From Clostridia bacterium DTU022 (lineage in GTDB: Bacteria; Bacillota; Dethiobacteria; DTU022), in the NCBI GenBank assembly GCA_001512835.1, contig LFRQ01000063.1:25594-89593 (forward strand): 64,000 bases of DNA. Direction: 5' to 3'. The translations under genes were made by a program, and so were the position numbers. Below the pieces are notes generated by a model that saw nothing but the letters and a program-made list of their open reading frames with translations, made no database searches and was not told the origin of the DNA. Positions 3,907 to 59,550 of the stretch are shown in pieces (positions within the stretch are counted from its first letter, which is position 1; each line of letters begins with the position of its first letter).

Positions 3907-4592
3907 AGTTGTCTTCCGATCTGGAGAGGATACCCGGTTAAGAAACGAGGGTGTGGGCCTGGGTTAATGCGCAGCCAGTGCGGGAAAAGAACGGATTATT
4001 GAGCTGAGGTGGCGGGTAACCGCCGGAAGGAACAAAACCCGGGCTGGATAGCGGTTTTCCGAAATGTTAAAGTAGGCGATTCCGTTGAAGTCCTGGAAAG
4101 CCGGCCTTAGCTTTGGCCCGGTGGCCTGCAAGTGAGGCCGATTATTATTGTTTTAAGAAGGAATTCTGATCTGATCATCGCCAAGGGTCAGGGGAATTTC
4201 GAATCCCTGGAGCAGGAACCGGGCAATATTTTTTTCCTGCTCCGGGCCAAGTGCCCGGTGGTAGCTGGGTTTCTCGGGGTCCGGTTGGGCGATTGTGTTC
4301 TTAAAAGCCAACAGAATTGGTGATGGGTTTTACTGTATACTACTGTTCATTGCCTGAGGTTTTCGTGGGCCAAGGTTGCCTGGGGAACGGTGACTTTGGC
4401 TCATTTTGGTGAGTGACATTAATCAATGGGAGGGTGTAACTTTGGTCATTAGGAAAAATATTTTTTGCCGAAGGAATTATAAAGAATAATAAACTAAAGT
4501 TCGGATTTGCTTGTAGGATTTGCATGTATGAAGGGCGAATTACTATAACATTGGGGAAAGCTGCCATATACTGTCAGTAAGGAGGCCTCGAC

Positions 4593-9684: not shown

Positions 9685-10473
9685 TTGGATGAGATCCTCA
9701 TTAAAACGGATAAACTGACCAAGCGGTTTGGCAGGGTAACGGCGGTAGACAGCCTCGACCTGGAGGTTAAGGCCGGGGAGATTTACGGTTTCCTGGGGCC
9801 CAACGGCTCCGGTAAAACCACTACCATCAGGATGTTGACGGGATTGCTGGAACCCAGCTCCGGCCGGGCTTTTATATGCGGATATGACATTGCCCGGGAG
9901 CCCGCCAAGGCCAAGGCCCTGGCGGCCTATGTGCCGGACCAGCCCAGGCTTTACGGCAAACTGACGGCGCGGGAGTTTCTTTTTCTGATGGCGGACCTTT
10001 ACCGCATGCCTGTAGAAAGCTCCCGGGAGCGGGCCGGCGAGCTGCTGGCCATGTTCGGCCTGGAAGAGCGGGCCGACGAACTGCTGGAAGGCTTTTCCCA
10101 CGGCATGCGCCAGAAGGTAGTCCTGGCGGCGGCGCTGATTCACCGTCCGCGGGTGCTGCTTATGGACGAGCCTACCGTGGGCCTGGATCCCCGCAGCGCC
10201 CGCTTTCTGAAAGATGTCCTGCAGGAACTGGCCCGCCGGGGGGCGGCGGTATTTCTCTCCACCCACATCCTGGAGATTGCCGAGCGGATGTGCCACCGGG
10301 TGGGCATCCTCAGGGGGGGGCGCCTCATCGCCGAAGGGAGTCCTGAAGAGCTGCGGCAGCAGGTCGGCCACGGCGGAGAGAGCCTGGAGGATATCTTCCT
10401 GGAACTGACCGGAGGGCAGGAGGACGCCGAACTGATCCGCAGCCTGGAGGAGGGGAACAACGGTGAAAAATGA
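9685..10473 (+). CDS. ABC transporter ATP-binding protein
   Basis: Walker A GPNGSGKTT, the signature LSHGMRQKV and Walker B LLMDEPT are present. A TTG start follows GGAAGGAG. Confidence 0.85.
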   Translation: MDEILIKTDKLTKRFGRVTAVDSLDLEVKAGEIYGFLGPNGSGKTTTIRMLTGLLEPSSGRAFICGYDIAREPAKAKALAAYVPDQPRLYGKLTAREFLFLMADLYRMPVESSRERAGELLAMFGLEERADELLEGFSHGMRQKVVLAAALIHRPRVLLMDEPTVGLDPRSARFLKDVLQELARRGAAVFLSTHILEIAERMCHRVGILRGGRLIAEGSPEELRQQVGHGGESLEDIFLELTGGQEDAELIRSLEEGNNGEK

Positions 10474-12328
10474 CCTTCTCTCCCCGCTGGTCCAAGCCCC
10501 GCCGCCCCGCCCGGCCTGGATGGATTTTAAGCTGCTGATGGCTACCCAGCTGCGGGTGACCTGGAATAAGCTCCGCCATTGGTCGGCGGCCGTCTGGCTT
10601 GTTGTGGCCTGCATGCTCTTTGGCTTTCTTTCCCTGATGGTCTACCTGGGCGTGGAGGCTTACGGAGCCCTGGGGGCCATGGATCCCGGCATCGCCCGCG
10701 GCTTCCTCTCGCTGCTCTTCCTGGCCGGGATGGCGGCCCAAATATTTTTCGGAATCGCCACTGCTTTCTCCGTCCTCTACATGTCCGAGGATCTGGAGCT
10801 GCTGTTTGTGGCACCGGTATCCACCCGGGCCGTATTTGCCTCCAAGTCCCTGGTGGTAGCTTTCAGCAACTTCCTGCCGGTGGTCTTTTTGATCCTTTTG
10901 CCGGCCCTGTTTTACGGCCTCCTTTTCAGCGCCGGTCCTCTATACTATCTCTGGATCATACCGGTAGTGGGCGGGCTTTGGGCGGTGGGCACCGCCCTGG
11001 CGGAGCTGCTGAACCTGCTGGTGATGCGCATCGTGCCGCCCCACCGCAGCCGGGAAGCGGTGGGTGTTATCGGCGCCGTGGGCGGGATTTTTATTGCCCT
11101 GCTCTTTCAGTTGCCCAACCTGATCATCTCCCGCAGCGAAAGCTTTGATATCAGCGCCTGGATGGCCGGCCAGGGAGAACTGGTGCGGGTCATGGACTGG
11201 TTTCCCTGGGGTTGGAGTTCCCTGGTCCTGGAGGGGGCCGCCACGAGCAGCCACCTCTCCGCCCTGGGCTGGAGCCTGCTGCTGCTCCTTTTGGGTGCGC
11301 TGCTGGTCGGCATCTCTTTTCCGCTGGTGGAGCGCGGTTTTCGCCGGGGCTGGATCTCCCTGAGCGAGGGGGGAGGCGGGCCCAGAAGGAAGACCGCCCG
11401 CATCCCGAGCTCCCAGCGCCGGGGCTTGCGGCGCCGGGAAGACGCCCTTTCAGTGGTGGTTGACGGCGGGACGGCGGAGGCTAGCGGATCCTCCTGGCGG
11501 GGGATGTGGTCCGTGGCCCGCAAAGACCTGCTTTACCTGCGCCGCGATACCCGGGCGTGGTTCGGTTACCTGGTTCCCCTGGTATTTATGCTTTTCTTTA
11601 TTGGGCAGTATCTCTATCTCTCCGTGGAATCGGCGCAAAGCTCGCTATTCTCCGTGCTGCTGATCTATACCATCATGTTTAGCGGCAACATGGCCCTGCA
11701 GTCCTTCGGCCGCGAAGGGGAGGCGGACTGGATTCTGAACAGCGTGCCCCTGTCGGGGTGGCCCGTGGTCTGGGGGAAGCTGCTGGCGGTAATCCTGCCC
11801 ACCGTGCTTTTAATGGAGGCGCTGCTGGCGGGGACGGCGGCCTTGCTCCGCCTCTCATCTTCCATGATTCTGGCCATGGCGGTGGGCGCGGTGTTCCTCT
11901 CCCTGGGTGCCAGCGCCATGGGCTTGAACTTCTCCATCAGGAGCTGCCGCTTTAACCCGGGAAACCCCATGGGCAGCGTTTCAACGGGTGCGACCATGCT
12001 AATGTACCTGCTCAACTTGATTTTTATACTGCTGTTAAGCCTGGGGGTAGCCTACATCTTTCCCCCGGCGGAGCTGATGGCAGTCCTGCCGAAGATACCC
12101 GAAGTCTCCTTTGCCTGGGGCTTCCCCGAAACATTTCTTTACCTGGGCTACCTGCTGACCCGCCCCCTGCTCTGGCCGAAGGCGGCCCGAATCCTGTGGG
12201 GGGTCTTCTTCACCGGCGCCGTCTGGTCGGCGGTCTTCTTCGGCTTCATGGCCTCCACGGTATCCCGAAGCCGGAAAGGATTCCAGGTGGAGATCATCAC
12301 CCCCAAAAAACTCGGGGTCAGGTCTTGA
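10463..12328 (+). CDS. large ABC-2-type polytopic permease (621 aa)
   Basis: Its start overlaps the ATPase stop by 11 nt. It has more than 12 predicted TM helices. Its last four codons and stop (ggg gtc agg tct tga) lie inside a REP-like repeat. Confidence 0.7.
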   Translation: MKNDLLSPLVQAPPPRPAWMDFKLLMATQLRVTWNKLRHWSAAVWLVVACMLFGFLSLMVYLGVEAYGALGAMDPGIARGFLSLLFLAGMAAQIFFGIATAFSVLYMSEDLELLFVAPVSTRAVFASKSLVVAFSNFLPVVFLILLPALFYGLLFSAGPLYYLWIIPVVGGLWAVGTALAELLNLLVMRIVPPHRSREAVGVIGAVGGIFIALLFQLPNLIISRSESFDISAWMAGQGELVRVMDWFPWGWSSLVLEGAATSSHLSALGWSLLLLLLGALLVGISFPLVERGFRRGWISLSEGGGGPRRKTARIPSSQRRGLRRREDALSVVVDGGTAEASGSSWRGMWSVARKDLLYLRRDTRAWFGYLVPLVFMLFFIGQYLYLSVESAQSSLFSVLLIYTIMFSGNMALQSFGREGEADWILNSVPLSGWPVVWGKLLAVILPTVLLMEALLAGTAALLRLSSSMILAMAVGAVFLSLGASAMGLNFSIRSCRFNPGNPMGSVSTGATMLMYLLNLIFILLLSLGVAYIFPPAELMAVLPKIPEVSFAWGFPETFLYLGYLLTRPLLWPKAARILWGVFFTGAVWSAVFFGFMASTVSRSRKGFQVEIITPKKLGVRS

Positions 12329-13443
12329 ATTGTGAATTTTTAGGAAAAATATGTTATATGTTATGGAGTCAGGCCTTGAAATGTGGATTTTGGAAATTTA
12401 TAGTGCCCAATTCTTGGGCATGGGGGCCGATCTTGAAATGTGAATTTTTGCTGTGCTGGGAAAAACAGTAATTTCGATCTTGAAATATGGCTTTTTTGTA
12501 TGCTATGTTATATATGCCATGGCCAGACCGTTGCGTATCGAATACCCCGGGGCGGTCTATCACATAACAACCCGGGGAAATGCCCAGAATAACATATTCC
12601 GGGATGACCAGGATCGCGAAAACTTCCTCGATATCCTCAATGAAACTGTAAAAAGGCACAACTGGCTTTGTCATGCCTATTGCTTGATGAACAACCACTA
12701 TCATCTGCTCATTGAGACCCCCGAAGCCAACCTTTCCCTGGGCATGAGGCAAATCAACGGTGTCTATACCCAGCGTTACAATAAAAGACATAAGCAGGTA
12801 GGACATGTTTTCCAGGGCAGATACAAGGCGATTTTGGTGGATAAAGAAAACTATCTCCTTGAGTTGTGCCGATATGTAGTGCTCAACCCGGTCAGAGCGG
12901 GGCTCGTGGAATTGCCTGAGCACTGGCAATGGGGAAGCTACCTGCCAACAGCCGGATTCACCGAGGTTCCCGAGTTTCTGACGGTGGACTGGATTCTGGG
13001 CATGTTTGGAACCAACAGGCAGGATGCTCAAAGGCATTATCGAGAATTTGTCAGGGTTGGCCTAAGTAAAAAATCGCCTTGGGACAACCTTGACGGACAA
13101 GTTTTGCTAGGCAGCAAGAATTTTGTGGAACAGTTGAAGGATTTGCTTCAAGAAAAAGAGGGCATAAAAGAGATACCGCGGCATCAACGCTTCGCTAGTC
13201 GGCCCACTCTTGAAGAGATCTTTGCCGCCTGCTTAACCAAATACATTAGAAATGAAAGGATTTACGAGGCCCACGTTAAACATGGCTACTCGTTGATGGA
13301 GATTTCGGATTTTCTGGGCATTCACTACTCCACAATCAGCAAGATAGTCCGAAAAATGGTCCCCAAAAGCTAGCAATTCAAGACCTGACCCCATGCCTAA
13401 AATGACGCCCATAATAAAATTCACAATTCAAGACCTGACCCCC
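12314..13443. mobile_element. REP-RAYT unit: a Y1 (IS200-like) transposase gene flanked by inverted REP-like repeats
   Basis: Four reverse-orientation copies of GGGGTCAGGTCTTGAATTGTGAATTTTT lie upstream at 12314-12497. Two forward copies (AATTCACAATTCAAGACCTGACCCC) lie downstream at 13373-13443. Confidence 0.7.
12519..13373 (+). CDS. REP-associated tyrosine transposase (IS200/IS605 TnpA-like Y1 HUH enzyme) with a C-terminal HTH extension
   Basis: The HUH motif HYHLLIE and the catalytic Tyr region (RYVVLNPVRAGLV) are present. The C-terminal extension (EISDFLGIHYSTISKIV) is DnaA-domain-IV-like. ATG 12519 is the likely start, with an alternative GTG at 12453 inside a REP copy. Confidence 0.8.
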   Translation: MARPLRIEYPGAVYHITTRGNAQNNIFRDDQDRENFLDILNETVKRHNWLCHAYCLMNNHYHLLIETPEANLSLGMRQINGVYTQRYNKRHKQVGHVFQGRYKAILVDKENYLLELCRYVVLNPVRAGLVELPEHWQWGSYLPTAGFTEVPEFLTVDWILGMFGTNRQDAQRHYREFVRVGLSKKSPWDNLDGQVLLGSKNFVEQLKDLLQEKEGIKEIPRHQRFASRPTLEEIFAACLTKYIRNERIYEAHVKHGYSLMEISDFLGIHYSTISKIVRKMVPKS

Positions 13444-21114: not shown

Positions 21115-21616
21115 AGGTTTCCCTCCTTTCTCTTTTTATTAACAGAGGAGCATTAAAAGTCTAAGAGCAAAGTTCTAAAACTGCTTCCCCCCTTCTTGGT
21201 TTTATCATGACAATCAGGGATCTTCTGTTATATTTTTATTCGATGCTTTCATACAAATTCCTTCCAAATATTATTTATATTAAGACTATTAAAAATATAT
21301 ATTAATCTTAGCATTAATGGAAAAAGTTTGCAGGAGATTTTAGTAGGGGTGGAGATGGGGGGTAAGCCTGGCAACCGGCAATACGGCTGTACTTTGTGCC
21401 GATTTCTTGCCTTAAAGAAAACCATAAAAATCACTGGGCCTCAAGCGCGTCCAGCGTTATGAGCTTTTGCTGTGCCATTGTTATGTTGTTGGCGGCAGGG
21501 CTGGCGTTTCCTTTGCATGCGACTTTGTTAAGATTTTGCATTGGATTAAGTGGGGATGGTTATTTTACAAAGTAATTCTCCGGTATCGATTTTTCAAATT
21601 TGGCTCCTTGATGTCC

Positions 21617-21692
21617 AAAATTCAAAATTCAAGACCTGACCCTCTTGCCAGCCTAATTCAAAATTCAAGACCTGACCCCCTGCCTGACCCCC
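21617..21692. repeat. two and a half REP-like copies (AATTCAAAATTCAAGACCTGACCCCC)
   Basis: They are in forward orientation. Copy 2 and the partial copy 3 encode the last residues (QGVRQGVRS*) of the minus-strand membrane protein. Confidence 0.6.
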
Positions 21693-23140
21693 TGCCGGCG
21701 CAGCATTACTACCAGGAACCAGGCCAGGAGAAGGAGGCCTCCGTAAGCGGCGAAAAAGCCCAGGCTGGTCCACAGGTAGCGCAGGGGCTGCTGCAGCAGG
21801 TGGCCGGTGAGGGGGAAGTTGACAAATATAAATAGCGGCAGGCCGAGGAGCAGGGAAAGGGGGGCGGCAGCGGCTGCATCCACGGCGGCGGGGGTTTCCA
21901 GGCGCGGATCGACGGCGCGCACCAGGGCCAGGCTTGAGGCGATATTACCGGTTACCAGCCCGAATACGGCCGCGGTGCGCTCCGCGGCGAAGTCGCCGTG
22001 GAGGCGGGGGGAGATAAACCAGACCAGAGCCATGAGGCCTGCGCCGCAGAGCAGGGAGAGCACCAGGACCTCCACCCAGTATTCACGCACCAGAACCAGG
22101 GGAATGGAGGCCACGGCCCCGGCAACCAGGAAATCCACCATGGCCCCGGAGATGCGGGCGAACAGGCCGGTGTCAAAGAGGTGGCCGAGTTCCATCCAGT
22201 CTATTACCTTCCTGGCCAGGAAAGCAATCAGGAGAGCGACGGCAAAGCTGTAGCTCCACAGGATCCCGCTGGCCAGTTCCCCGCTCTCGCCCAAGCGGGC
22301 GAGTAGGAGCGAAAGCCGGTGAAGCAGTTCATAGGTGAGGAGGAAAACAATCCCGATCAGGGCCAGGTGAAGGGTAAAGGACTCGATTCCTTCCACGGCG
22401 GTAGTCAGGTGTCCGGCCACCGGCTTCTTCTCCTCGCGGGAAAGAAGGCCCAGCAGCACCGATCGGCTGGCCACCCTTTGGGACCCTTTTTTCCGGCGCA
22501 GCAGGAAGACCAGAACCGCTCCCCCGAGATAAGCCCAGAGAAAACCGGCAGTGCCGAAGGAAAAACCGGTCCAGCCGCCGGCTGTAAAGCCCAGCTGCTC
22601 CCACTGCAGGCCGAAATTGGCGGCGATGAGGTGATCCAGGCCGAAACCCAGCAGGGGCAGCATGGAGAAAGAAGGAAAGAAATCGGGCCGCAGTGCTGCT
22701 ATCCAGGCCAGGGTGAAGGCGATGCCGAGCAAGGCCAGCAGTGTGTAGCTTTTACAGACAGCCAGCAAGGTGGTGATGATCCCCTCGCCGTGCCGGTAGC
22801 GCGGTTTTTGCAGGCCGAAGACAATAAACACCCCCGTCAGCAAGTGGTGCACCACGGTGTTCAGATGGTCATGGGAGAGGGCGATGAGGCCGCAGACTTG
22901 CCGGTCCAGCAGAAGAAGGATTAGGCCGGCAATTAGCGCGTTGGGGAGAAACAAGCGCTGCAGAAAGGAGAGCTGCCGGCGCAGGAAGGTGGCGGCAGCC
23001 AGGCCGCAGCCGAGATAAGCAAATACCAAAACTGCATCCCAGGAGATAAAAGTGGACAGTTCCAAGGGAGCACCTCTCTTTTCCATGCCGCTCTGGTCCA
23101 AATGTTTACGGCTGTCCTTTTCCCTTGTTGTCTCCGCCAT
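21665..23140 (-). CDS. polytopic membrane protein, putative transporter; function unassigned
   Basis: About 12 hydrophobic helices. The start is uncertain: ATG 23140, or more plausibly TTG 23065 after AGAGAGGTG. The 3' end runs into the REP copies. Confidence 0.55.
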   Translation of the reverse strand: MAETTREKDSRKHLDQSGMEKRGAPLELSTFISWDAVLVFAYLGCGLAAATFLRRQLSFLQRLFLPNALIAGLILLLLDRQVCGLIALSHDHLNTVVHHLLTGVFIVFGLQKPRYRHGEGIITTLLAVCKSYTLLALLGIAFTLAWIAALRPDFFPSFSMLPLLGFGLDHLIAANFGLQWEQLGFTAGGWTGFSFGTAGFLWAYLGGAVLVFLLRRKKGSQRVASRSVLLGLLSREEKKPVAGHLTTAVEGIESFTLHLALIGIVFLLTYELLHRLSLLLARLGESGELASGILWSYSFAVALLIAFLARKVIDWMELGHLFDTGLFARISGAMVDFLVAGAVASIPLVLVREYWVEVLVLSLLCGAGLMALVWFISPRLHGDFAAERTAAVFGLVTGNIASSLALVRAVDPRLETPAAVDAAAAAPLSLLLGLPLFIFVNFPLTGHLLQQPLRYLWTSLGFFAAYGGLLLLAWFLVVMLRRQGVRQGVRS

Positions 23141-23395
23141 TGAAAAAGTTCCGCCGCTTTAGCTGCAAGGGGCAAGTTCCGGCGTGGCAAACCGACCCGG
23201 CAAGAAGGAACTTGCTTGCCCGGCTCCAGGGGATAGTACCGACGATCGTTGCCGACGCTGCAGCTTCTTCTGAGGAATGGACCCTTCTTCGTTCCGAGGG
23301 CATTTGGGCGGCGACTGGTGACTTTTCCTTGCACATATACTGTAATTGGTATGTCATTATTTGTCAATAAATAATTTTCTGATATTTCCGGTAAT

Positions 23396-23545
23396 GTGTG
23401 CCTGGAGCGGCGGCATGTGTACCTGGAGTGGTGGGATGTGAGCCAGGAGGGTAGCATGGGTACCTGGAGTGGCGGCATGGGTGCCTGGAGCGGTGACATG
23501 CGTGCCTGGAGTGGCGGCAATGCCTTGCCTGGAATGGCCATGGCA
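23396..23545. repeat. seven tandem copies of the 21-nt unit GTGTGCCTGGAGYGGCGGCAT
   Basis: The array is seen in sequence and lies in the divergent intergenic region between the membrane-protein gene and the phosphodiesterase-family gene. Nucleotide conservation exceeds amino-acid conservation of the overlapping ORF. Confidence 0.7.
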
Positions 23546-23670: not shown

Positions 23671-25386
23671 GTGAGAAAAAAAAGATGGACCGTCTGGTTT
23701 TTGATCTGGGTCGCGGCCCTTGCCGCGGGCCTGGGAGCCCTGGCTTACACCCATTTTAAACTGGAGCGGGCGGGCTCCCCCTTCGGCCAGAACCCGGTCC
23801 TGGAAGAAGAGATCAGCCCATTTACGGAGCCCATGGCCCAGAATGTCTACCTAATTTTAATCGACGGCATGCGGGCGGACTCGCTGCCGGATATGCCCTT
23901 TGTGCAAAGCCTGGCGGACATGGGCAGCAGCGGGGTGATAGTGGTGGAGGAGCCCACCTTTTCCCGGCCGGCTTATGCCCGCATTATTACCGGGGCCAGT
24001 TCCTCCATCAGCAATATCAAAACCAACGATCAAGCCCGGAAATTAAACCTGCCCAACCTCTTCGACCTGGCCCGCTTCTCCGGCTTAAAAACGGGCGGCT
24101 CGCTATACTACTGGTTTTACGAGTTGGTAGTGGGCCCCCCGTACCGGACGGGGGACAGCCACGAGAACCGCTTTTTTCATGATGAAGAGATGCCCCTTCA
24201 ATCGGGCTATTTTTATGACGATTTCAATTACCAATATAATGACCGGGAGATTTTTGAATACGGAATCCGGATCATGCGCGACTACAACCCCAACTTCCTG
24301 GTGGTGCACACCATGGAGCTGGACATGGCCGGGCACAATTACGGGGGCGCCTCCCCGAAATACCGGGAGATCCTGCGCATGAACGACCGGCAGATTCAGG
24401 AGTTTGTCCAGGCGATCCCGGATCCGGAAAATAGCGTGGTCATCATCACCGGCGACCACGGCCATATCGATGCCGGGGGACACGGAGGTCCGGAAAAGGA
24501 GGCCTCCCGGGTCCCCCTGGTCATTTTCGGCAAAGGCGTAAAAAAGGGCGCCTTGCCCCAGTACTCCCAGCTGGACCTGGCTCCCACTATTGCCGCCATC
24601 CTGGGGATGCCCTTCAGCCGCTACATGGCCGGGAGCATCATGGAGGAGGCTTTTGACTGGACCGAAGCGGTGCTGGCTGAAAAGAGGGAACTGTTAAAGA
24701 CGACCCATGCCGGCTTTGTGCAGGAGCTTTATGCCCAATTGGGGCTGGAGGAAGCCGTTGACGGCGAAGCTACGGTGGCCGCCGCCCTGGATCGGGTGAG
24801 GGCGGAAACCATAAAGCGGCGGGTCCTGGTGGCCGTCATTCTGCTCCTCCTTCTGGGAGGGGCCCTGGTGTTCGGGCTTGGCCTGCACCGGAGGGAGCGG
24901 CGGGCGAAGCTTTTCCGGGGGTCGAGGGTCATGCCGGCCCAGGCCTTGCTCTCCACCGCCCTCTATGCCGCCGTTTTCCACCTGGTCTTCTACGGCATCG
25001 GGCTGGGCTACTCCTTCAGCAAGCTTAATACCGTTGCTCACCTGGCCGTCAAGATGCCCCTGGCCGTCCTGGCCAGCTACCTGGTTCTTCTGGCCCTGGT
25101 GCTGCTTCTCTCCAGGTTTAAGGCGAACTTCCGCATCTACGCCCGGCATACCGGCTTCATTATGGTCTTCCTGGCGGCCCTGATTTTGGGGGGCGCCCTG
25201 CTCCAGGGGGACAAAGGTTTCATCCTGCCGGATTACCGCTATTACATGTTGACCTTTTTCTCCTCTCTCCATTTGGCCCTTTTTGCCCTCTTTTCCCTGC
25301 TGGGAGGCGGAATCATGCTTCTGTTGAATAGATTTAAAGGCAAAGGGGCGGCGGAAGGGGAGGCGACCCCCACCCCTGAGGATTAG
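23671..25386 (+). CDS. alkaline-phosphatase-superfamily (type I phosphodiesterase/nucleotide pyrophosphatase-like) protein with N- and C-terminal membrane regions
   Basis: Metal-site motifs are present (LILIDGMRAD, ITGDHGHIDAGGHG). A GTG start follows GAGGAGG. The C-terminal ~200 aa are hydrophobic. Confidence 0.7.
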   Translation: MRKKRWTVWFLIWVAALAAGLGALAYTHFKLERAGSPFGQNPVLEEEISPFTEPMAQNVYLILIDGMRADSLPDMPFVQSLADMGSSGVIVVEEPTFSRPAYARIITGASSSISNIKTNDQARKLNLPNLFDLARFSGLKTGGSLYYWFYELVVGPPYRTGDSHENRFFHDEEMPLQSGYFYDDFNYQYNDREIFEYGIRIMRDYNPNFLVVHTMELDMAGHNYGGASPKYREILRMNDRQIQEFVQAIPDPENSVVIITGDHGHIDAGGHGGPEKEASRVPLVIFGKGVKKGALPQYSQLDLAPTIAAILGMPFSRYMAGSIMEEAFDWTEAVLAEKRELLKTTHAGFVQELYAQLGLEEAVDGEATVAAALDRVRAETIKRRVLVAVILLLLLGGALVFGLGLHRRERRAKLFRGSRVMPAQALLSTALYAAVFHLVFYGIGLGYSFSKLNTVAHLAVKMPLAVLASYLVLLALVLLLSRFKANFRIYARHTGFIMVFLAALILGGALLQGDKGFILPDYRYYMLTFFSSLHLALFALFSLLGGGIMLLLNRFKGKGAAEGEATPTPED

Positions 25387-27872: not shown

Positions 27873-27878
27873 ACAGAT

Positions 27879-28078
27879 TGGTGCCTGGCACGTCAACTTT
27901 GTCAACTTGATCGAATATTCTGATAATATGTGCCTGGGCCGGCAACTTGGATAACTTTTTGTTTCCGCCACCGGGGGCCTTCTTGCGGCCCCCCTTTATT
28001 TTGGTGCCTGGCACGTCAACTTTGTCAACTTGGTAGAAAATTCTGAAAAATGGTGTCAGGACCGGCAACTTGGTCAAT
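27879..28078. repeat. two direct copies of a ~78-bp unit, each carrying three CAACTTG motifs, separated by a terminator
   Basis: The copies are at 27879-27957 and 28003-28078. Each contains GTCAACTTtGTCAACTTG…GGCAACTTGG. They lie upstream of iolB. Confidence 0.7.
27973..28002 (+). terminator. rho-independent terminator
   Basis: The hairpin GGGGGCC ttcttgc GGCCCCC is followed by CTTTATTTT. Confidence 0.6.
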
Positions 28079-28191
28079 CTTATTTTTAGGCCGGCTGCCG
28101 TTGTAGCATAGTGGAAGATATGCTAAGATTAACCTGAAATATTAAGGGATAGCGGGTCCGTTGCCGTCGTTTACCCACTGGAGGCTTCGAG

Positions 28192-31449: not shown

Positions 31450-31762
31450 TTCAATACCCCCTTGCTGTTATTATTGCGTGTTTTGTGGTGTGTTTTGCAG
31501 CGTTGCTTTGCGGCGCTTTATAGTGGAGCGGCCTTGTTACAAAATTCACAAGCTGCCCATAAAAAATACCCCTGCTCCTGCGTGCATAGCACTGAACGGG
31601 GTATTGATTCTCATCTTCTCTTACCCTATTCTTTTGGCCAAGCTTATTGTAGCATAATTATTCCATTCAGGCAAGAACACAATTCGACAAAAATTTCACT
31701 TTTCCAGACTTGACCCCTGCCATGTTTAACATTTCCAGAACTGCCCCCTAGTTGCTGCTTGC

Positions 31763-33472
31763 TTACCGAGCCTGTTCCTGCTCCATGATCTTTCTCAGGT
31801 CTTTTTTGAGCACTTTGCCCACGCTGCTCATGGGCAGCTGATCCATAAACCGGATTATCCTGGGCACCTTATAGGGGGCCAGCTTATTTTTCAGAAACGA
31901 AACAATCTCCTGGCGCATCGCCTCGTCGCCCCGCCGCCCCGGCTTGAGGACCACCCCGCAAGCCAGGATCTCCGATCCCGGCCTCTTCGGATCGGGCAGC
32001 CCCACCGCTGCGGCGATATGAACGTCGGGATGTTTCATCAGCGTTTCGTCAACCAGGCGCGTGAAAACTTTAAAGCCGGAGATATTAACCATATCCTTGA
32101 CCCGGTCCACGATATAAAAGTAGCCGTCTTCATCCATAACGGCGATATCCCCCGTATAGATCCAGCCGTCCCGGAGCGTTTTCGCCGTCTCTTCGGGCTT
32201 GTTGTGGTAGCCTTTGGTGAACACCTGGGGACCGCGGGCGACCAGCTCTCCCGGCTCTCCCGGGGGCACTTCCTCGCCGGTGGCGGGATCCACCAGGCGA
32301 ATTTCTGTATCGCTGATGGGGAGGCCTACGGAACCGGCTTTCTTAATCCCGTCCCGGGGCAGCGCGGTCAGGATGGGACTGGTTTCCGTCATCCCGTAAA
32401 CCTCGATGAGCTTGCCCCGGCCGATCAGCTTCTCCAGCTCTTCGATGCTGTCCGCGGGAAACGGCGAGGCACCGCTGGCTGCGTACTGCACGTCGGAAAA
32501 ATCCAGCGCCCGAAAACCGGGGTGTTTTAAAAGCTCCAGGAAGAGAGTCGGGACATTGATCATGGTGCTGGGCCGGTATTTTTTTATGGCTGCCACGATA
32601 TAGTCAAGGTCTCGCGGATCCGGAACCAGCACCTGAGTGCTGCCCAAAGAGAAGCTCCACAGGGCAACAAAATTTCCCGCCTGGTGAAACATGGGGAAGG
32701 CGGAGAGGATGGTGTGTTCGCCTATTTCGGGGCGCATCCAGGCGGTCATCTGCACCAGCTGGTGGATCATGTTGTTATGGGTAAGGATTGCCCCCTTGGG
32801 CGGGCCCGTCGTCCCGCCGGTGTACATCATCAGGGCAGGAGCCTCGGGATCCACCTCTACCTTTACCGGTTCCTCGGGCATGGAGGACAGGGCCCTTGTA
32901 AAGGAGATTACTTCGCTCCCCGGCAGGGAAGTTACAGGGCCCGCGGGTATTTTTTTCAACAGCTTGCCCAGCAGCCTTTTCAGGGCGGGCAGGTAGTCGG
33001 CGATGGAGGCTACGATTATTGTATTTAGGTCCGTTTGGGCTATGATTTGCCTAACCTTTTCGAAGAAGAGGTCCAGGGTAATCAAAATTTTGGCTCCGGA
33101 ATCCTTGAGCTGGTAGGCCAGCTCTTCCGGGGCCAGAAGGGGGCTGACCCCTGAAAAGACGCACCCGGCCTTTTGAATCGCCAAAGAGGCGATATAACAG
33201 GCGGGTATGTTGGGCAAGTGTACACCGACGGTGCTTCCGGGCTCCCCGCCGTGCTCTTGGAGAAAGCGGGCCAGGCGATTGGAGAGGGCATCCAGTTCCC
33301 GGTAGCTGATCAATTGGCCCATGTAAATGAGGGCTGTTTTGTCGGGCAGCTTTTCAAAGGCTCTCCGGGCATAATCCCAATAGGAGAGCCGGGGATACTC
33401 CAGGCGGGGAGGGACTTCGGGATCGTACCACCTGAGCCAGGGTTTTCCCGCATAAATATTGTTTCTGGCCAT
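31763..33472 (-). CDS. long-chain fatty acid-CoA ligase (AMP-binding)
   Basis: The AMP-binding motif YTGGTTGPPKG and the C-terminal lid lysine region are present. AAAGGAG precedes the start. Confidence 0.85.
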   Translation of the reverse strand: MARNNIYAGKPWLRWYDPEVPPRLEYPRLSYWDYARRAFEKLPDKTALIYMGQLISYRELDALSNRLARFLQEHGGEPGSTVGVHLPNIPACYIASLAIQKAGCVFSGVSPLLAPEELAYQLKDSGAKILITLDLFFEKVRQIIAQTDLNTIIVASIADYLPALKRLLGKLLKKIPAGPVTSLPGSEVISFTRALSSMPEEPVKVEVDPEAPALMMYTGGTTGPPKGAILTHNNMIHQLVQMTAWMRPEIGEHTILSAFPMFHQAGNFVALWSFSLGSTQVLVPDPRDLDYIVAAIKKYRPSTMINVPTLFLELLKHPGFRALDFSDVQYAASGASPFPADSIEELEKLIGRGKLIEVYGMTETSPILTALPRDGIKKAGSVGLPISDTEIRLVDPATGEEVPPGEPGELVARGPQVFTKGYHNKPEETAKTLRDGWIYTGDIAVMDEDGYFYIVDRVKDMVNISGFKVFTRLVDETLMKHPDVHIAAAVGLPDPKRPGSEILACGVVLKPGRRGDEAMRQEIVSFLKNKLAPYKVPRIIRFMDQLPMSSVGKVLKKDLRKIMEQEQAR

Positions 33473-33886
33473 CTGGTCGGCTCCTTTCTAAAGATGAGAT
33501 CATTCCATGGTGCTGTGCCGGCTACAGATTTGCTGCCGAGTTGAATGCGGAGGTGGAGGACATCTGAGACAGCAAGTGGCCTGCAGGTATTGTTGACTTG
33601 GATTTTCTTGTAGTTCTATCTTATTATATTAAAAATTTTTAATTTTGGTAATTATATATTAAAATTGATTTAATGATATTTATGCTCCAGAATTGTGGAA
33701 GGCTGCTCCCGGAACGAAGAGATTTTCCTAGCCCTATTAAGCACTACTAGCCCAAAAATCCAAAGCCGGCCGGCATGGCGGCCGGCCTGCTGCCGCTGCT
33801 GGCAAAAGCCTTGAACTCCGGCGTCCGGAAGGCAGGTTGCCGAAAGCCGAGGGTTCCGTCTTTTGCTCTTTCCCGGATCCTACACT

Positions 33887-34124
33887 AATTCACAATTCAA
33901 GACCTGACCCCTGACATCTGTGACCCCTGCCACCTGCTTTCAAATTGCAAGACCTGACCCCTGTCACATTTCACATTTCAAGACCTGATCCGCCACTGCA
34001 TATTTACATTTCATCAAGACCTGACCCCTTCTACCTCATTTCAAGACCTGACTCCACAAAAATTCACAATTCAAGACCTGACCCCAATAAACTGCTAAAA
34101 TTCACAATTCAAGACCTGACCCCC
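33887..34124. repeat. array of seven REP-like copies (AATTCACAATTCAAGACCTGACCCC) in direct orientation
   Basis: AAGACCTGAC cores lie at 33899, 33949, 33980, 34016, 34053, 34073 and 34111. Spacing is irregular (20-50 nt) and the copies are degenerate. Confidence 0.7.
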
Positions 34125-39604: not shown

Positions 39605-40068
39605 GACGAAGGGACGGGGAGACGAGTGAGTCGGAGGACGTGAGACGGGGGGACGTGACTTTATCTCATCGTGAGACGGAGGGACGGAGGCTTTGACTCG
39701 CCGGGGACGACGACTTTTGAGACGGAGAAGCAAAGGCTTTGACTTACCGGAAATCAGGCTTTGACGGAGGGACGAGACGGAGGGACGGTAACTTTGACTC
39801 ATCGGAATTCAACTTTGAAAATTACACTTTAAACCTCTTTTTTTATTCCTATGATGTTTGAAACCGCTGTGGCAGCCGGCATCCCCGTATTTGCCGCTGA
39901 CTGATGCCTGGCATGAATTTCGTGCGAGAGCAACCTTGCAAGAGATGTCCTATCTGCCCGGACTTTCAGCGGAAGCTTATTAAATTGTGAGTCAAAGTCA
40001 CCGTCCCCTTGGCTCACCCTAAAGTAAAAAAAGTGAGCCAAGGTCACCTTCCCCTTGACTCACCGTTC
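39605..40068. repeat. cluster of the GGAGGGACGGTGACTTTG(G/A)CTCATCGG repeat family
   Basis: A degenerate direct array (about 5 units, 39605-39815) is followed by a ~170-bp spacer and then two reverse-orientation copies (39987-40008, 40033-40065). Confidence 0.55.
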
Positions 40069-40109
40069 AATTTTAAAGATATGCCGGCCTGCCGGCGGAC
40101 CGGCTGCGG

Positions 40110-41571: not shown

Positions 41572-42465
41572 ATGCCCCTGGTCGAGATTGACGAAAATAT
41601 ATACCTGGTTCAAGGCATGAACCGGGGGAGGTATCCTTACGCCAACGGGATGCTCATCCAGGATCGCTTTACCGCCCTGGTGGATACAGGGATGGGCCCG
41701 GAGGCAATGGCAGAAGTCGCTGACAATTACCGGGTGGACCTGTTGATTATATCCCACGGTCACGAGGATCATTATGCGGCCAATCACCTGTTTCCCCAAG
41801 CCCGGGTTGCGGTACATCGCCTGGATGCCCCGGCGCTACGCTCCGTGGAGCGGCTGGTGGAGCTTTACGGCGCCGCGGGGACAGAGACGGAGGAGCCGCT
41901 GCTCCGCTTTCTAAAGGATTTTTTTAATCTAAAGGCTTCCCCGGTGGACCTGGAATTTGAAGACGGCCACATCTTTGATCTGGGCACGGTCAAACTAAAG
42001 GCGATCCATACCCCCGGCCACTCGGCGGGACACTGCTGTTTTTCCGTGGAAAACCGGGGGCTGGTTTTTCTAGGGGATATAGACCTCTCTTCTTTCGGTC
42101 CTTTCTACGGCTGCCTGGATTCGGATATTGATTCCTTCCTGGCTTCCATTGCCAGGATTCAGGAGCAGGGATTTGAAACGGCCCTCTCCGGCCACAAGGA
42201 ACCGGTTTTCGGCAGGGAAACCCTTTGGCGCTGCTTGGAAGAGTACGGGCAGATCATATTTGAACGGGAAGAGAAGCTGCTCAATTTTTTGCAGCGGGAG
42301 CGCAGCCTGGAGGAAATCGTAGAGGCCGCTTTGATATACCGCCGTTTTCCCGAGCCGGCAGACCTTTACGCCTTGCTGGAGCGAAACATGATCTCCAAGC
42401 ACCTGGAGCGACTTCTTGCGACAGGAAAAATTGTCTCATTTGGGAACAATTTTATGGCGATTTAA
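41572..42465 (+). CDS. MBL-fold metallo-hydrolase
   Basis: The HxHxDH motif (SHGHEDH) and downstream His/Asp ligands are present. GGGAGGAG precedes the start. Confidence 0.8.
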   Translation: MPLVEIDENIYLVQGMNRGRYPYANGMLIQDRFTALVDTGMGPEAMAEVADNYRVDLLIISHGHEDHYAANHLFPQARVAVHRLDAPALRSVERLVELYGAAGTETEEPLLRFLKDFFNLKASPVDLEFEDGHIFDLGTVKLKAIHTPGHSAGHCCFSVENRGLVFLGDIDLSSFGPFYGCLDSDIDSFLASIARIQEQGFETALSGHKEPVFGRETLWRCLEEYGQIIFEREEKLLNFLQRERSLEEIVEAALIYRRFPEPADLYALLERNMISKHLERLLATGKIVSFGNNFMAI

Positions 42466-57718: not shown

Positions 57719-59488
57719 TTGTATAGAAGAGGTAAAACCGGGAAAAATCCCAGGGCTTTCGGTTCCTGTGGCGGTTATAAACAGCGGTCGCTGCAAGCCG
57801 ACTCCGGCCAGTTCGCGGCCAGGGGGATCGGCCGGGTTCCCGCCAGCTGCCCGCCGGGCTTTCAAGGGCGCTACACGGTTCAGTCCGGCGATACGATGTT
57901 CTTTATTGCGCAGCGGTTCGGGGTCTCCCTGCAGGCGCTGATCAATGCCAACCCGCAGATACCCGATCCCAGCGTTCTCTTCCCGGGCGACGTGCTCTGT
58001 GTTCCCGGGGCTGGGGCTCCGCCTGGCGGCCGGGTTCCCGCCAGCTGCCCGCCTGGTTTTCAAGGGCGCTACACGGTTCAGCCCGGCGATACGATGTTCT
58101 TTATTGCGCAGCGGTTCGGAGTTTCCCTGCAGGCGCTGATCAATGCCAACCCGCAGATACCCGATCCCAACGTCCTCTTCCCTGGGGATGTCCTCTGCGT
58201 TCCCGGGGGACCGCCGGCCGGCCGGGTTCCCGCCAGCTGTCCGCCGGGCTTTGGCGGCCGTTACACGGTGCAGTCGGGCGACAGCATGTTCAGCATCGCT
58301 CAGCAGTGCGGGGTCTCTCTGCAGGCGCTGATCAACGCCAACCCGCACATTACCGACCCGAACCAGCTCTTCCCCTGCGATGTGCTCTGCGTCCCCTGCC
58401 CGCAGCCGGGCCGGGTGCCCACCAGTTGCCCGCCGGGCTTCCAGGCCCAGTATACGGTGCGTCCCGGCGACAGCATGTTCAGCATCGCCCAGCTTTTCGG
58501 GGTGAGCTTGCAGGCGCTGATCAACGCCAACCCGCACATTACGGACCCGAATCAGATCAACCCCTGCGACGTGCTCTGCGTTCCCTGCGTGCCGGTGAGG
58601 GTATCCCCCTGCTTTCCGGTGCCTGAAGAAGGCGGTCGGGTCCCTAAAGACTGCCCCAAGGGTTTCGGGGGGCGCTACACGGTGCAGGCCGGTGACAGCA
58701 TCTTCAGCATCGCCCAGCAGTGCGGGGTCTCCCCGCAGGCGCTGATTAAGGCCAACCCGCACATTCATGATCCGAAAAAGCTCCAGCCGTGCGACGTCCT
58801 TTGCGTTCCCTGCCCGCAGCGGGGCCGGGACCCCAAGGACTGCCCCAAGGGTTTTGAGGCCCAGTATACGGTGCGTCCCGGCGACAGCATTTTCAGCATT
58901 GCCCAGCTTTTCGGGGTAAGCGTGCAGGACTTGATCAAGGCCAACCCGCACATTCATGATCCGAAAAAGCTCAACCCCTGCGACGTGCTCTGCGTCCCCT
59001 GCGTACCGGTGAAGGTTTCTCCCTGCTTCCGAGAGCCGCTCCTGGAAGGCCGGGTTCCTACCAGCTGTCCCCAGGGCTTCCAGGGCCGCTATACCGTGGA
59101 GGCGGGAGATACCATGTCTGCTATAGCGCAGCGGTTTGGGGTTTCTTTGCAGGCGCTGATTAACGCCAACCCGCAGATCACCAATCCGGACGAACTTTTC
59201 CCGTGCGACGTGCTCTGCGTCCCCTGCCCGCAGCCGGGCCGGGTTCCCGCCGGCTGCCCGCCGGGCTTCCAAGGCCAGTACACCGTGGCTCCCGGCGACA
59301 GCATGTTTACCATAGCGCAGCGGTTCGGGGTTTCCCTGCAGGAGCTGATTAATGCCAACCCGCAGATTCCCGATCCCAACCAGCTCTTCCCCTGTGACGT
59401 CCTCTGCGTCCCGTGCCCCGCTTCCCTGACGGCGGTGGAAGTGGAAGAGATGGAAGAGGAGGGGGAAAAGAAGGAGATCGATCTCTAA
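57719..59488 (+). CDS. protein with eight tandem LysM domains separated by Cys/Pro-rich linkers and an acidic C-terminal tail
   Basis: The unit YTV(Q/R)(S/P)GD(T/S)MF.IAQ.FGVSLQALINANP…DVLCVPC recurs eight times at about 55 aa. The tail is EVEEMEEEGEKKEIDL. A TTG start follows GGAAAGGAG. Confidence 0.8.
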   Translation: MYRRGKTGKNPRAFGSCGGYKQRSLQADSGQFAARGIGRVPASCPPGFQGRYTVQSGDTMFFIAQRFGVSLQALINANPQIPDPSVLFPGDVLCVPGAGAPPGGRVPASCPPGFQGRYTVQPGDTMFFIAQRFGVSLQALINANPQIPDPNVLFPGDVLCVPGGPPAGRVPASCPPGFGGRYTVQSGDSMFSIAQQCGVSLQALINANPHITDPNQLFPCDVLCVPCPQPGRVPTSCPPGFQAQYTVRPGDSMFSIAQLFGVSLQALINANPHITDPNQINPCDVLCVPCVPVRVSPCFPVPEEGGRVPKDCPKGFGGRYTVQAGDSIFSIAQQCGVSPQALIKANPHIHDPKKLQPCDVLCVPCPQRGRDPKDCPKGFEAQYTVRPGDSIFSIAQLFGVSVQDLIKANPHIHDPKKLNPCDVLCVPCVPVKVSPCFREPLLEGRVPTSCPQGFQGRYTVEAGDTMSAIAQRFGVSLQALINANPQITNPDELFPCDVLCVPCPQPGRVPAGCPPGFQGQYTVAPGDSMFTIAQRFGVSLQELINANPQIPDPNQLFPCDVLCVPCPASLTAVEVEEMEEEGEKKEIDL

Positions 59489-59550
59489 ACCCCTTTTAGG
59501 GAAAACCCGCTTGCCCTGGGCTTTCCCCCAGCTTATGATGAAACTTGACA

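Follow-up and report, generated by a model that had tools for sequence, protein, structure and literature searches.

Two unrelated membrane-protein genes of Clostridia bacterium DTU022 end within copies of the same short DNA repeat, which provides both with the C-terminal residues GVRS and a TGA stop codon. They lie in a stretch of 64,000 nucleotides (nt) of contig LFRQ01000063.1 (assembly GCA_001512835.1, positions 25,594 to 89,593 of the forward strand), which was analysed at its full length and is referred to here as the window. The window also carries a gene for a REP-associated tyrosine transposase (RAYT; REP, repetitive extragenic palindromic sequence), and it is highly probable that a small non-autonomous repeat belonging to this RAYT element either inserted into the final codons of the two genes or was joined to them later.

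At the first site, window positions 12314-12328 are GGGGTCAGGTCTTGA, read as G-V-R-S-stop, and the open reading frame (ORF) 10463-12328(+) has the C-terminus ...ITPKKLGVRS. At the second site, on the minus strand, positions 21694-21665 are CAGGGGGTCAGGCAGGGGGTCAGGTCTTGA, that is CAGGGGGTCAGG CAGGGGGTCAGG TCTTGA; the final DNA of ORF 21665-23140(-) is likewise GGGGTCAGGTCTTGA, and its product ends in ...MLRRQGVRQGVRS. The doubled QGVR of this protein corresponds to an in-frame 12-nt tandem copy of the outer end of the repeat. The overlap of repeat and coding 3' end is 15 nt at site 1 and 30 nt at site 2, so that the repeat contributes the stop and the last three to four residues of the first protein, and the stop and up to nine residues of the second. 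An earlier, sequence-only reading had proposed this shared terminus inside a repeat, and the window sequence and ORF ends bear it out; its location for the second site (21665-21692) was right, but its end coordinate missed 2 of the 30 nt.

Each of the two ORFs is a genuine gene, and the membrane proteins that they encode are unrelated to each other. The first, hereafter the permease, was recognised by its match to Pfam ABC_tran_2 (E=1.7e-17). Its gene overlaps with the 3' end of an ABC ATPase gene located upstream, and over 200 full-length homologues were found. Fourteen homologues were found for the second protein, one with Glt_symporter, and a sequence identical to it is named ESS-family glutamate:Na+ symporter by JGI. 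Recoding of TGA was considered and rejected: it serves as a normal stop here, at the end of 11 of the 41 long ORFs.

The 15 nt common to both sites are the outer end of a unit of about 27 nt, GGGGTCAGGTCTTGAA(T/A)TGTGAATTTT. With up to two mismatches its 14-nt core (GGTCAGGTCTTGAA) occurs 14 times in the window, compared with 0.41 expected occurrences, and with up to three mismatches there are 16 family copies and one likely chance match at 41623. A further, very degenerate copy at 12473, the fourth of the array to the left of the RAYT gene, was recognised by eye, bringing the total to about 17 copies over five sites in 64 kb (Table 1). Between 12314-12341 and 34058-34085 all 28 of 28 nt are identical, past the stop codon. 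Because DNA identity extends beyond the stop into non-coding sequence, the shared GVRS terminus derives from a DNA repeat and not from convergence at the protein level. The outward end of the repeat holds stops in two of its three frames within seven codons: frame 1 (GGG GTC AGG TCT TGA), which both window genes use, stops after four codons, and frame 2 (GGG TCA GGT CTT GAA TTG TGA) after six. Across 223 copies the outer end consists of an A/T-rich flank bordering GGGGTCAGG, and the conserved core contains neither a GTAG nor a CGTC tetranucleotide. No target-site duplication was seen around the copies, the 5' flank of which displays a weak A/T preference at -3/-2. A terminator scan found no intrinsic terminators in the repeats, no Rfam family matched anywhere in the window at the gathering threshold, and no paper came up in a full-text literature search for the core, read in either orientation.

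The transposase gene was identified by its match to NCBIfam NF047646 'REP-associated tyrosine transposase' (89.8 bits, cut-off 80) and to Pfam Y1_Tnp (E=1e-14). The protein contains the HUH motif as H60-Y-H62 and Tyr119 within RYVVLNP; a sequence search of the PDB with it gave no match. The gene is flanked by plus-strand copies (12314-12499) on one side and minus-strand copies (13362-13442) on the other. As the copy at site 1 belongs to the left array of the RAYT gene, of which it is the outermost member, it is not the stand-alone insertion that had been assumed. The label REP is likewise apt in part: association with a RAYT gene lying between inverted copies supports it, but the window copies are non-palindromic (z +0.6).

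The RAYT stop codon (TAG, 13371-13373) lies within the degenerate inner tail of the repeat copy 13362-13392, and differs by 1 nt in a second assembly of the species, where it is TAA (L001; L numbers are our labels for loci in other assemblies). Upstream of the RAYT start the repeat cores TTGAA(A/T) score as -35-like hexamers with well-spaced -10 elements at 12376-12404 and 12480-12509 (+), and by this prediction the repeats may be a source of the transposase promoter. GC content at the three codon positions of the RAYT gene is 0.51/0.33/0.56, compared with approximately 0.6/0.4/0.75 in its neighbours, and this low GC suggests a foreign origin by horizontal acquisition. The protein family has over 8000 members in different phyla (60-73% identity), many of them located on contigs of about 1 kb, and by its distribution the lineage appears insertion-sequence (IS)-like and horizontally mobile.

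Table 1. Repeat copies and associated genes in the window, in order of position
Feature	Position	Strand	Description
ABC_tran_2 permease gene	10463..12328	+	last codons (GGG) GTC AGG TCT and TGA stop within repeat copy 1
Repeat copy 1, GGGGTCAGGTCTTGAATTGTGAATTTTT	12314..12341	+	outermost in left array of RAYT gene; gives permease G-V-R-S-stop
Three direct copies, increasingly degenerate	12365..12499	+	starts 12365, 12422, ~12473; spacing 51-57 nt
RAYT gene, 284 aa	12519..13373	+	Y1 (HUH) transposase domain and C-terminal helix-turn-helix; flanked by inverted repeat copies
Two copies, inverted relative to left array	13362..13442	-	right flank of RAYT gene; outer GGGG ends at 13392 and 13442
Repeat doublet	21616..21694	-	full copies, outer ends 21679 and 21643, 36 nt apart; a 12-nt partial outer-end copy (CAGGGGGTCAGG) precedes them at 21694-21683
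Polytopic membrane protein gene, distant GltS/ESS-family symporter relative	21665..23140	-	last nine codons (QGVRQGVRS) and TGA repeat-derived
Two degenerate copies	31690..31748	-	start 14 nt past TAA stop of co-oriented gene 31763-33472(-)
Direct array, seven copies and one partial outer-end fragment	33884..34123	-	periods 27-50 nt; divergent promoter region between gene starts 33472 and 34250, no gene 3' end

The arrays in the window are direct, with periods of 27-57 nt, and their copies are single arms, whereas doublets elsewhere have inverted arms. Short partial outer-end copies (GGGTCA..), located at 21683-21694 and 33920-33928 (-) in the window and found likewise in L038, L073 and L104, lie directly upstream of full copies; taken with the direct arrays, such fragments hint that events recurred at copies already in place. 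A second dispersed repeat family, (GAGAC)GGAGGGACGGTGACTTTGACTCA(TCGG), has some 8-9 copies at 4384, 38528, 39649-39805 (+), 39979-40071 (an inverted pair) and 51749. It loosely resembles the first (GGGG..GGT..CTTTGA), and the window holds no second RAYT gene.

Orthologous loci without the repeat end in other tails, and the repeat-bearing state is therefore derived. In permease homologues the sequence ...KGFRVEIVT is followed by 3-19 mostly basic residues, among which KKKLG recurs; since this motif is common, the KKLG of the window protein is native-like, and only VRS and the stop are clearly repeat-derived. The permease orthologues of L123 (67% identity) and L128 (65%) lack the repeat and have the tails KKKLGGSPLPKK and KRKKPARGRLNRV, respectively, and a further 56 orthologous loci have a 3' end without it. 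For the second protein, the 60% identical orthologue at L126/L127 has no repeat and ends in ...KRGGAEAAESTDQAAKG. Past its last conserved motif the permease tail measures 12 residues, compared with a family median of 13 (range 7-22), and that of the second protein 15 residues, compared with 11-23 in homologues; both are slightly shorter than the tails of repeat-free orthologues. The native tails are variable and basic, and no conserved residues have been lost.

The sequence-only reading had stated that native C-termini were rewritten or truncated. Rewriting is supported, 3-9 tail residues having been replaced, but truncation is not, as the tail lengths fall within the family range. The alignment with orthologues that it had called for showed that the native, repeat-free C-termini differ while total tail length is alike. 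A GVRS terminus was found in no repeat-free orthologue, and the one orthologue that ends in the repeat, L121, does so in another frame.

The repeat is present at the permease 3' end in two lineages only, that of the window species and that of L121/L124. In L121, from a lineage of 61% identity, the fusion is in a different frame (AAACTTGGGGGTCAGGTCTTGAAATAA) and yields ...KKKKLGGQVLK followed by a stop. In L124, the protein of which is 87% identical to that of L121, the gene keeps its own TAA stop and a palindromic doublet lies 10 nt downstream. The repeats of L121 and L124 differ in sequence, and by this comparison the L121/L124 lineage appears to have acquired repeats at the permease 3' end independently. 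We considered whether this 3' end is a hot spot and rejected the idea, 58 of about 61 orthologous loci being empty; the repeat at this position reflects repeat-family activity in the genomes of those two lineages. A protein-based metagenome scan returned relatives of at most 67% identity, none with a repeat at the gene end, and an exact-pattern scan of metagenome contigs with the permease tail, for junction alleles or an empty site, gave no match.

The species is a member of the Dethiobacteria (Bacillota) represented by metagenome-assembled genomes (MAGs) in many public assemblies (NCBI, JGI, ENA and Logan). All of its contigs, more than 50 and independent of one another, carry both fusions. 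The permease ends in ...KKLGVRS in 49 contigs and in ...KKLELGVRS in three, and one noisy contig has a +4 nt frameshift; at site 2 every complete allele encodes QGVRQGVRS. The +6 nt allele is a tandem duplication of AACTCG that produces KKLELGVRS before the stop and was found in three independent assemblies. The +4 nt allele belongs to L001 (ENA ERZ2647865 NODE_19, a 218-kb contig), which is 99.8% identical to the window over 21.4 kb and has the same repeat layout. It shifts translation into the open frame, resulting in read-through of the whole array and approximately 50 extra residues (P0143), and was treated as uncertain because the L001 assembly is rich in homopolymer indels. These alleles map to window positions 12311-12314, to 4850-4860 of L125 and to about 20826-20832 of L001. 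In the 21.4 kb aligned between the window and L001, no multi-nucleotide indel occurs apart from the one at this junction.

L001 differs from the window almost exclusively by 1-nt homopolymer indels (33 gaps in 21.4 kb), which split many genes. Proteins predicted from it, such as P0121 and P0143, carry frameshifted ends that are artefacts.

Judged from these alignments, the permease/repeat junction is indel-prone and the fusion is old relative to population divergence. The fusions had been taken as direct evidence of recent REP mobility, a claim that is not supported: they occur in all contigs of the species, and copy identity cannot serve as a clock, since an alphaproteobacterial MAG contains exactly this 25-mer.

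A 17-mer scan with one genome per species recovered at least 119 loci; exact matches were selected, so that identity across phyla is partly an ascertainment effect. All counts in this and the following paragraph are among the matches listed. The 17-18-nt core is exact in MAGs of more than ten phyla (loci L002-L120), and the matches include Acidobacteriota, Methylomirabilota, Nitrospirota, Desulfobacterota, Omnitrophota, Gammaproteobacteria, Synergistota, Patescibacteria and Bacillota. A fourth G precedes nearly all of them, which argues that they are not chance matches. Pairs of copies were convergent, with the GGGG ends outward, in 61 cases, divergent in one and direct in 14. In a Rhodospirillaceae MAG (L011, 4461-4504) each arm of a perfect 46-nt palindrome is identical to the 25-nt unit of the window; this palindrome folds at -29.9 kcal/mol (z -12.2), and the doublet of L124, which contains the repeat variant GGGGTCAGATCTTGAA, at -20.3 kcal/mol. 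RAYT homologues of 40-66% identity directly adjoin the motif in nine of the matches. The arrangement of RAYT gene and repeat recurs in L112, L036, L010, L002, L101, L058 and L076, and flanking by inverted copies is found in L036, L010, L002, L101, L112 and L058.

For 91 copies a co-oriented upstream ORF of at least 200 codons ends nearby. Twenty-one of these ORFs terminate at the repeat TGA with GVRS, 13 at later stops in other frames, and 23 end 0-19 nt before the repeat. Spurious antisense ORFs inflate such counts in high-GC genomes, and they were filtered out by eye on codon-position GC. All ten GVRS-terminated ORFs that were tested, picked for their codon-position GC, proved valid by Pfam, with domains reaching essentially to the GVRS. 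They encode a histidine kinase/response regulator hybrid, an acyl-CoA dehydrogenase, an FAD oxidoreductase, a MOFRL kinase, hisS, HlyD, NrfD, polA, a DUF547 protein and an ABC ATPase; in hisS the anticodon-binding domain ends four residues short of the C-terminus. Among real genes, a class assigned by eye and thus approximate, the frame counts are about 11:5:3 in favour of the four-codon frame (P=0.024).

Taken together, we propose that RAYT-associated repeat copies reach dispensable final codons, either by landing there or through fusion by a small indel, the copies having presumably been mobilised by RAYT. An ORF running into the outward end would stop after four or six codons, and such early stops would limit the damage to a short tail swap that purifying selection tolerates. 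What was replaced are short, basic and poorly conserved cytoplasmic tails, which the repeat tail with its one Arg mimics. The change is therefore probably near-neutral and without functional consequence, and it is now fixed in the species. Survival of copies at gene ends would reflect purifying selection against more disruptive insertions.

Several points weigh against this proposal. The insertion events themselves are deduced from orthologue comparison rather than observed. Repeat-free alleles, which the sequence-only reading had suggested looking for, exist at orthologous loci (L123, L128 and the 56 others for the permease; L126/L127 for the second protein), but none was found within the species, for which no relative closer than 68% was recovered. 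Units and arrays of the window form no hairpin, folding no better than shuffled sequences (z +0.55 to +0.86). To our knowledge, characterised Y1 transposases recognise hairpins, and recognition of that kind would not account for single-arm copies and direct arrays. Simple neutrality does not account for the excess of the four-codon frame, which is suggestive only. Finally, the junction indels and the contrast between L124 and L121 make insertion downstream of the gene, followed by later fusion, plausible.

This last route, in which the repeat inserted beyond the native stop and a small deletion or other indel later removed that stop and fused the ORF, is a possible alternative that we consider less likely than not. 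It would account for L124, with its own TAA 10 nt ahead of the repeat, alongside its relative L121, which has no such stop and reads into the repeat, and for the three junction alleles (0, +6 and +4 nt) among near-identical strains, at the site of the sole multi-nucleotide indel in 21.4 kb. In other genomes, too, a stop codon often precedes the repeat by 0-19 nt, and in Coxiella an indel joined enhC to a miniature inverted-repeat transposable element (MITE; PMC5896051). However, the sequence difference between the L121 and L124 repeats means that these may be separate insertions and not the states before and after one deletion. The slightly shorter tails of the window proteins, relative to repeat-free orthologues, fit insertion inside the coding tail equally well, and the intermediate allele was found at neither window site.

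We regard it as unlikely that the repeat is kept on stop codons adaptively, through an interaction with ribosomes such as translational down-regulation or through mRNA 3'-end processing. Such placement would be in keeping with the number of repeat boundaries at or less than 20 nt from a stop codon (57 of 91 among the matches listed), with the over-representation of one frame and with the presence of both fusions in all population contigs of the species. In E. coli, REPs no more than 15 nt from a stop are reported to stall ribosomes and lower translation (Liang, Rudd & Deutscher 2015, as cited in PMC12306157), but that mechanism requires a stable hairpin, which the window copies do not form. 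Moreover, orthologues function without the repeat, and short intergenic spacers combined with purifying selection could yield equal clustering at gene ends. Coincidence or artefact, whether chance, mis-assembly at repeats or a conserved C-terminal GVRS motif, has hardly any probability. What speaks for it is a priori: assemblies do break at repeats, and for many RAYT homologues the contig is about 1 kb long. Chance is countered by the numbers of core matches observed and expected, and by identity that runs past the stop codon. Mis-assembly was rejected on the basis of identical junctions in the independent contigs from all four sources, and a conserved protein motif because orthologues lack GVRS, which appears on unrelated genes wherever the repeat abuts them.

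The tail fusion itself is a new example of a known phenomenon: swaps of a few tail residues of this kind, probably harmless here, are already known for bacterial mini-transposons. Less expected are the identity of the core across phyla, the direct arrays of half-REPs, and the recurrence of the GVRS terminus on essential genes of distant phyla. A further-reaching and doubtful extension of our proposal is that a pan-bacterial, horizontally spreading RAYT element has a repeat end shaped to carry early stops, and so settles with minimal harm on the last codons even of essential genes (hisS, polA). If this were true, the excess of the four-codon frame would represent such selection, or insertion coupled mechanistically to stop-proximal DNA, and the single-arm, non-hairpin direct arrays in this Bacillota lineage would imply spread beyond hairpin-dependent Y1 transposition.

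For annotation, C-terminal GVRS, GSGLEL/F and GQVLN/K tails on otherwise unrelated proteins of many phyla are repeat-derived and not motifs, and small junction indels can create long extensions, spurious or real (about 50 residues for the +4 nt allele). For the biology of mobile elements, the results point to a very widely distributed RAYT lineage with one and the same cognate core in different phyla, in contrast to the REPs studied so far, which are species-specific. Neither this nor the half-unit form of the repeat in this genome alters the general view that genes tolerate small repeats at their 3' ends.

Three other repetitive features of the window lie apart from this system. A tandem array of eight units of 189-225 nt with 68-100% identity occupies 57829-59535 inside a long ORF, probably that of a repetitive surface or cell-wall protein. 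At 23394-23517 a repeat of 21-nt period (ATGTGTGCCTGGAGCGGCGGC-like) is located just upstream or at the start of ORF 23671-25386. Two 92-nt direct copies with 80% identity (27878-27969 and 28001-28092) each include sequences of the TGGCACG...TTTG type, and a duplicated sigma-54-like promoter region is a possible interpretation.

REP sequences, BIMEs and REPINs are reportedly associated with RAYT (TnpA_REP) in Gammaproteobacteria, in work attributed to Nunvar (2010), Bertels & Rainey (2011) and Ton-Hoang (2012). The system described here resembles them in its single RAYT gene in the window, with HUH motif and Tyr, in the inverted short repeats that flank this gene and in the dispersal of the repeat. 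As there, the copies nearest to the gene are the most degenerate and one copy abuts the RAYT stop, and in other genomes convergent doublets of this core fold into hairpins in the manner of REPINs. In contrast, the window copies are single arms in direct arrays, neither palindromes nor alternating BIMEs, and the RAYT protein has an extra C-terminal helix-turn-helix and no sequence-detectable relative in the PDB. Di Nocera (2013) is said to have described a conserved GTAG (or CGTC) tetranucleotide at one REP end; the repeat here lacks this tag and has the outer end GGGGTCAGG instead. Classical REPs are species-specific, unlike this core. They also 'seldom overlap' genes (PMC12306157), whereas copies here overlap coding ends. 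The E. coli REPs discussed above share the strong concentration at or just after the stops of co-oriented genes, but their effect needs an mRNA hairpin past the native stop; here the stop lies inside the repeat and the window copies form no hairpin.

RAYT Group 1 has the widest taxonomic spread of the RAYT groups (21 classes, including Clostridia), is the most IS-like and has moderately abundant flanking 16-mers; its description reports no conserved repeat sequence and no gene-end effect (Bertels, Gallie & Rainey 2017; PMC5581495). Compared by description only, the family found here is similar, with its more than 8000 members in different phyla and the frequent location of their genes on contigs of about 1 kb. 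Rickettsia palindromic elements, as reportedly described by Ogata et al. in 2000, insert in frame inside ORFs and add internal peptide segments. They too are selfish repeats tolerated within protein-coding sequence; here, in contrast, only the extreme C-terminus and the stop are replaced.

The closest precedent, by analogy, is provided by QMITE1 and QMITE2 of Coxiella burnetii, which share 1-50 bp with the 3' ends of functional genes and donate a stop codon and a few C-terminal residues without significantly changing protein size (Wachter et al. 2018; PMC5896051). QMITEs differ in having terminal inverted repeats and no link to Y1 transposases or RAYT, and in their confinement to one genus, while the core described here occurs in many phyla; an identical tail on unrelated essential genes is not reported for them (PMC5896051). 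The strain-specific indel that links enhC to the element parallels the +4 and +6 nt junction alleles of the permease. As with gene termini of the QMITE type, the stop and end residues here lie in the repeat, repeat-free orthologues have different ends, and protein length is essentially unchanged.

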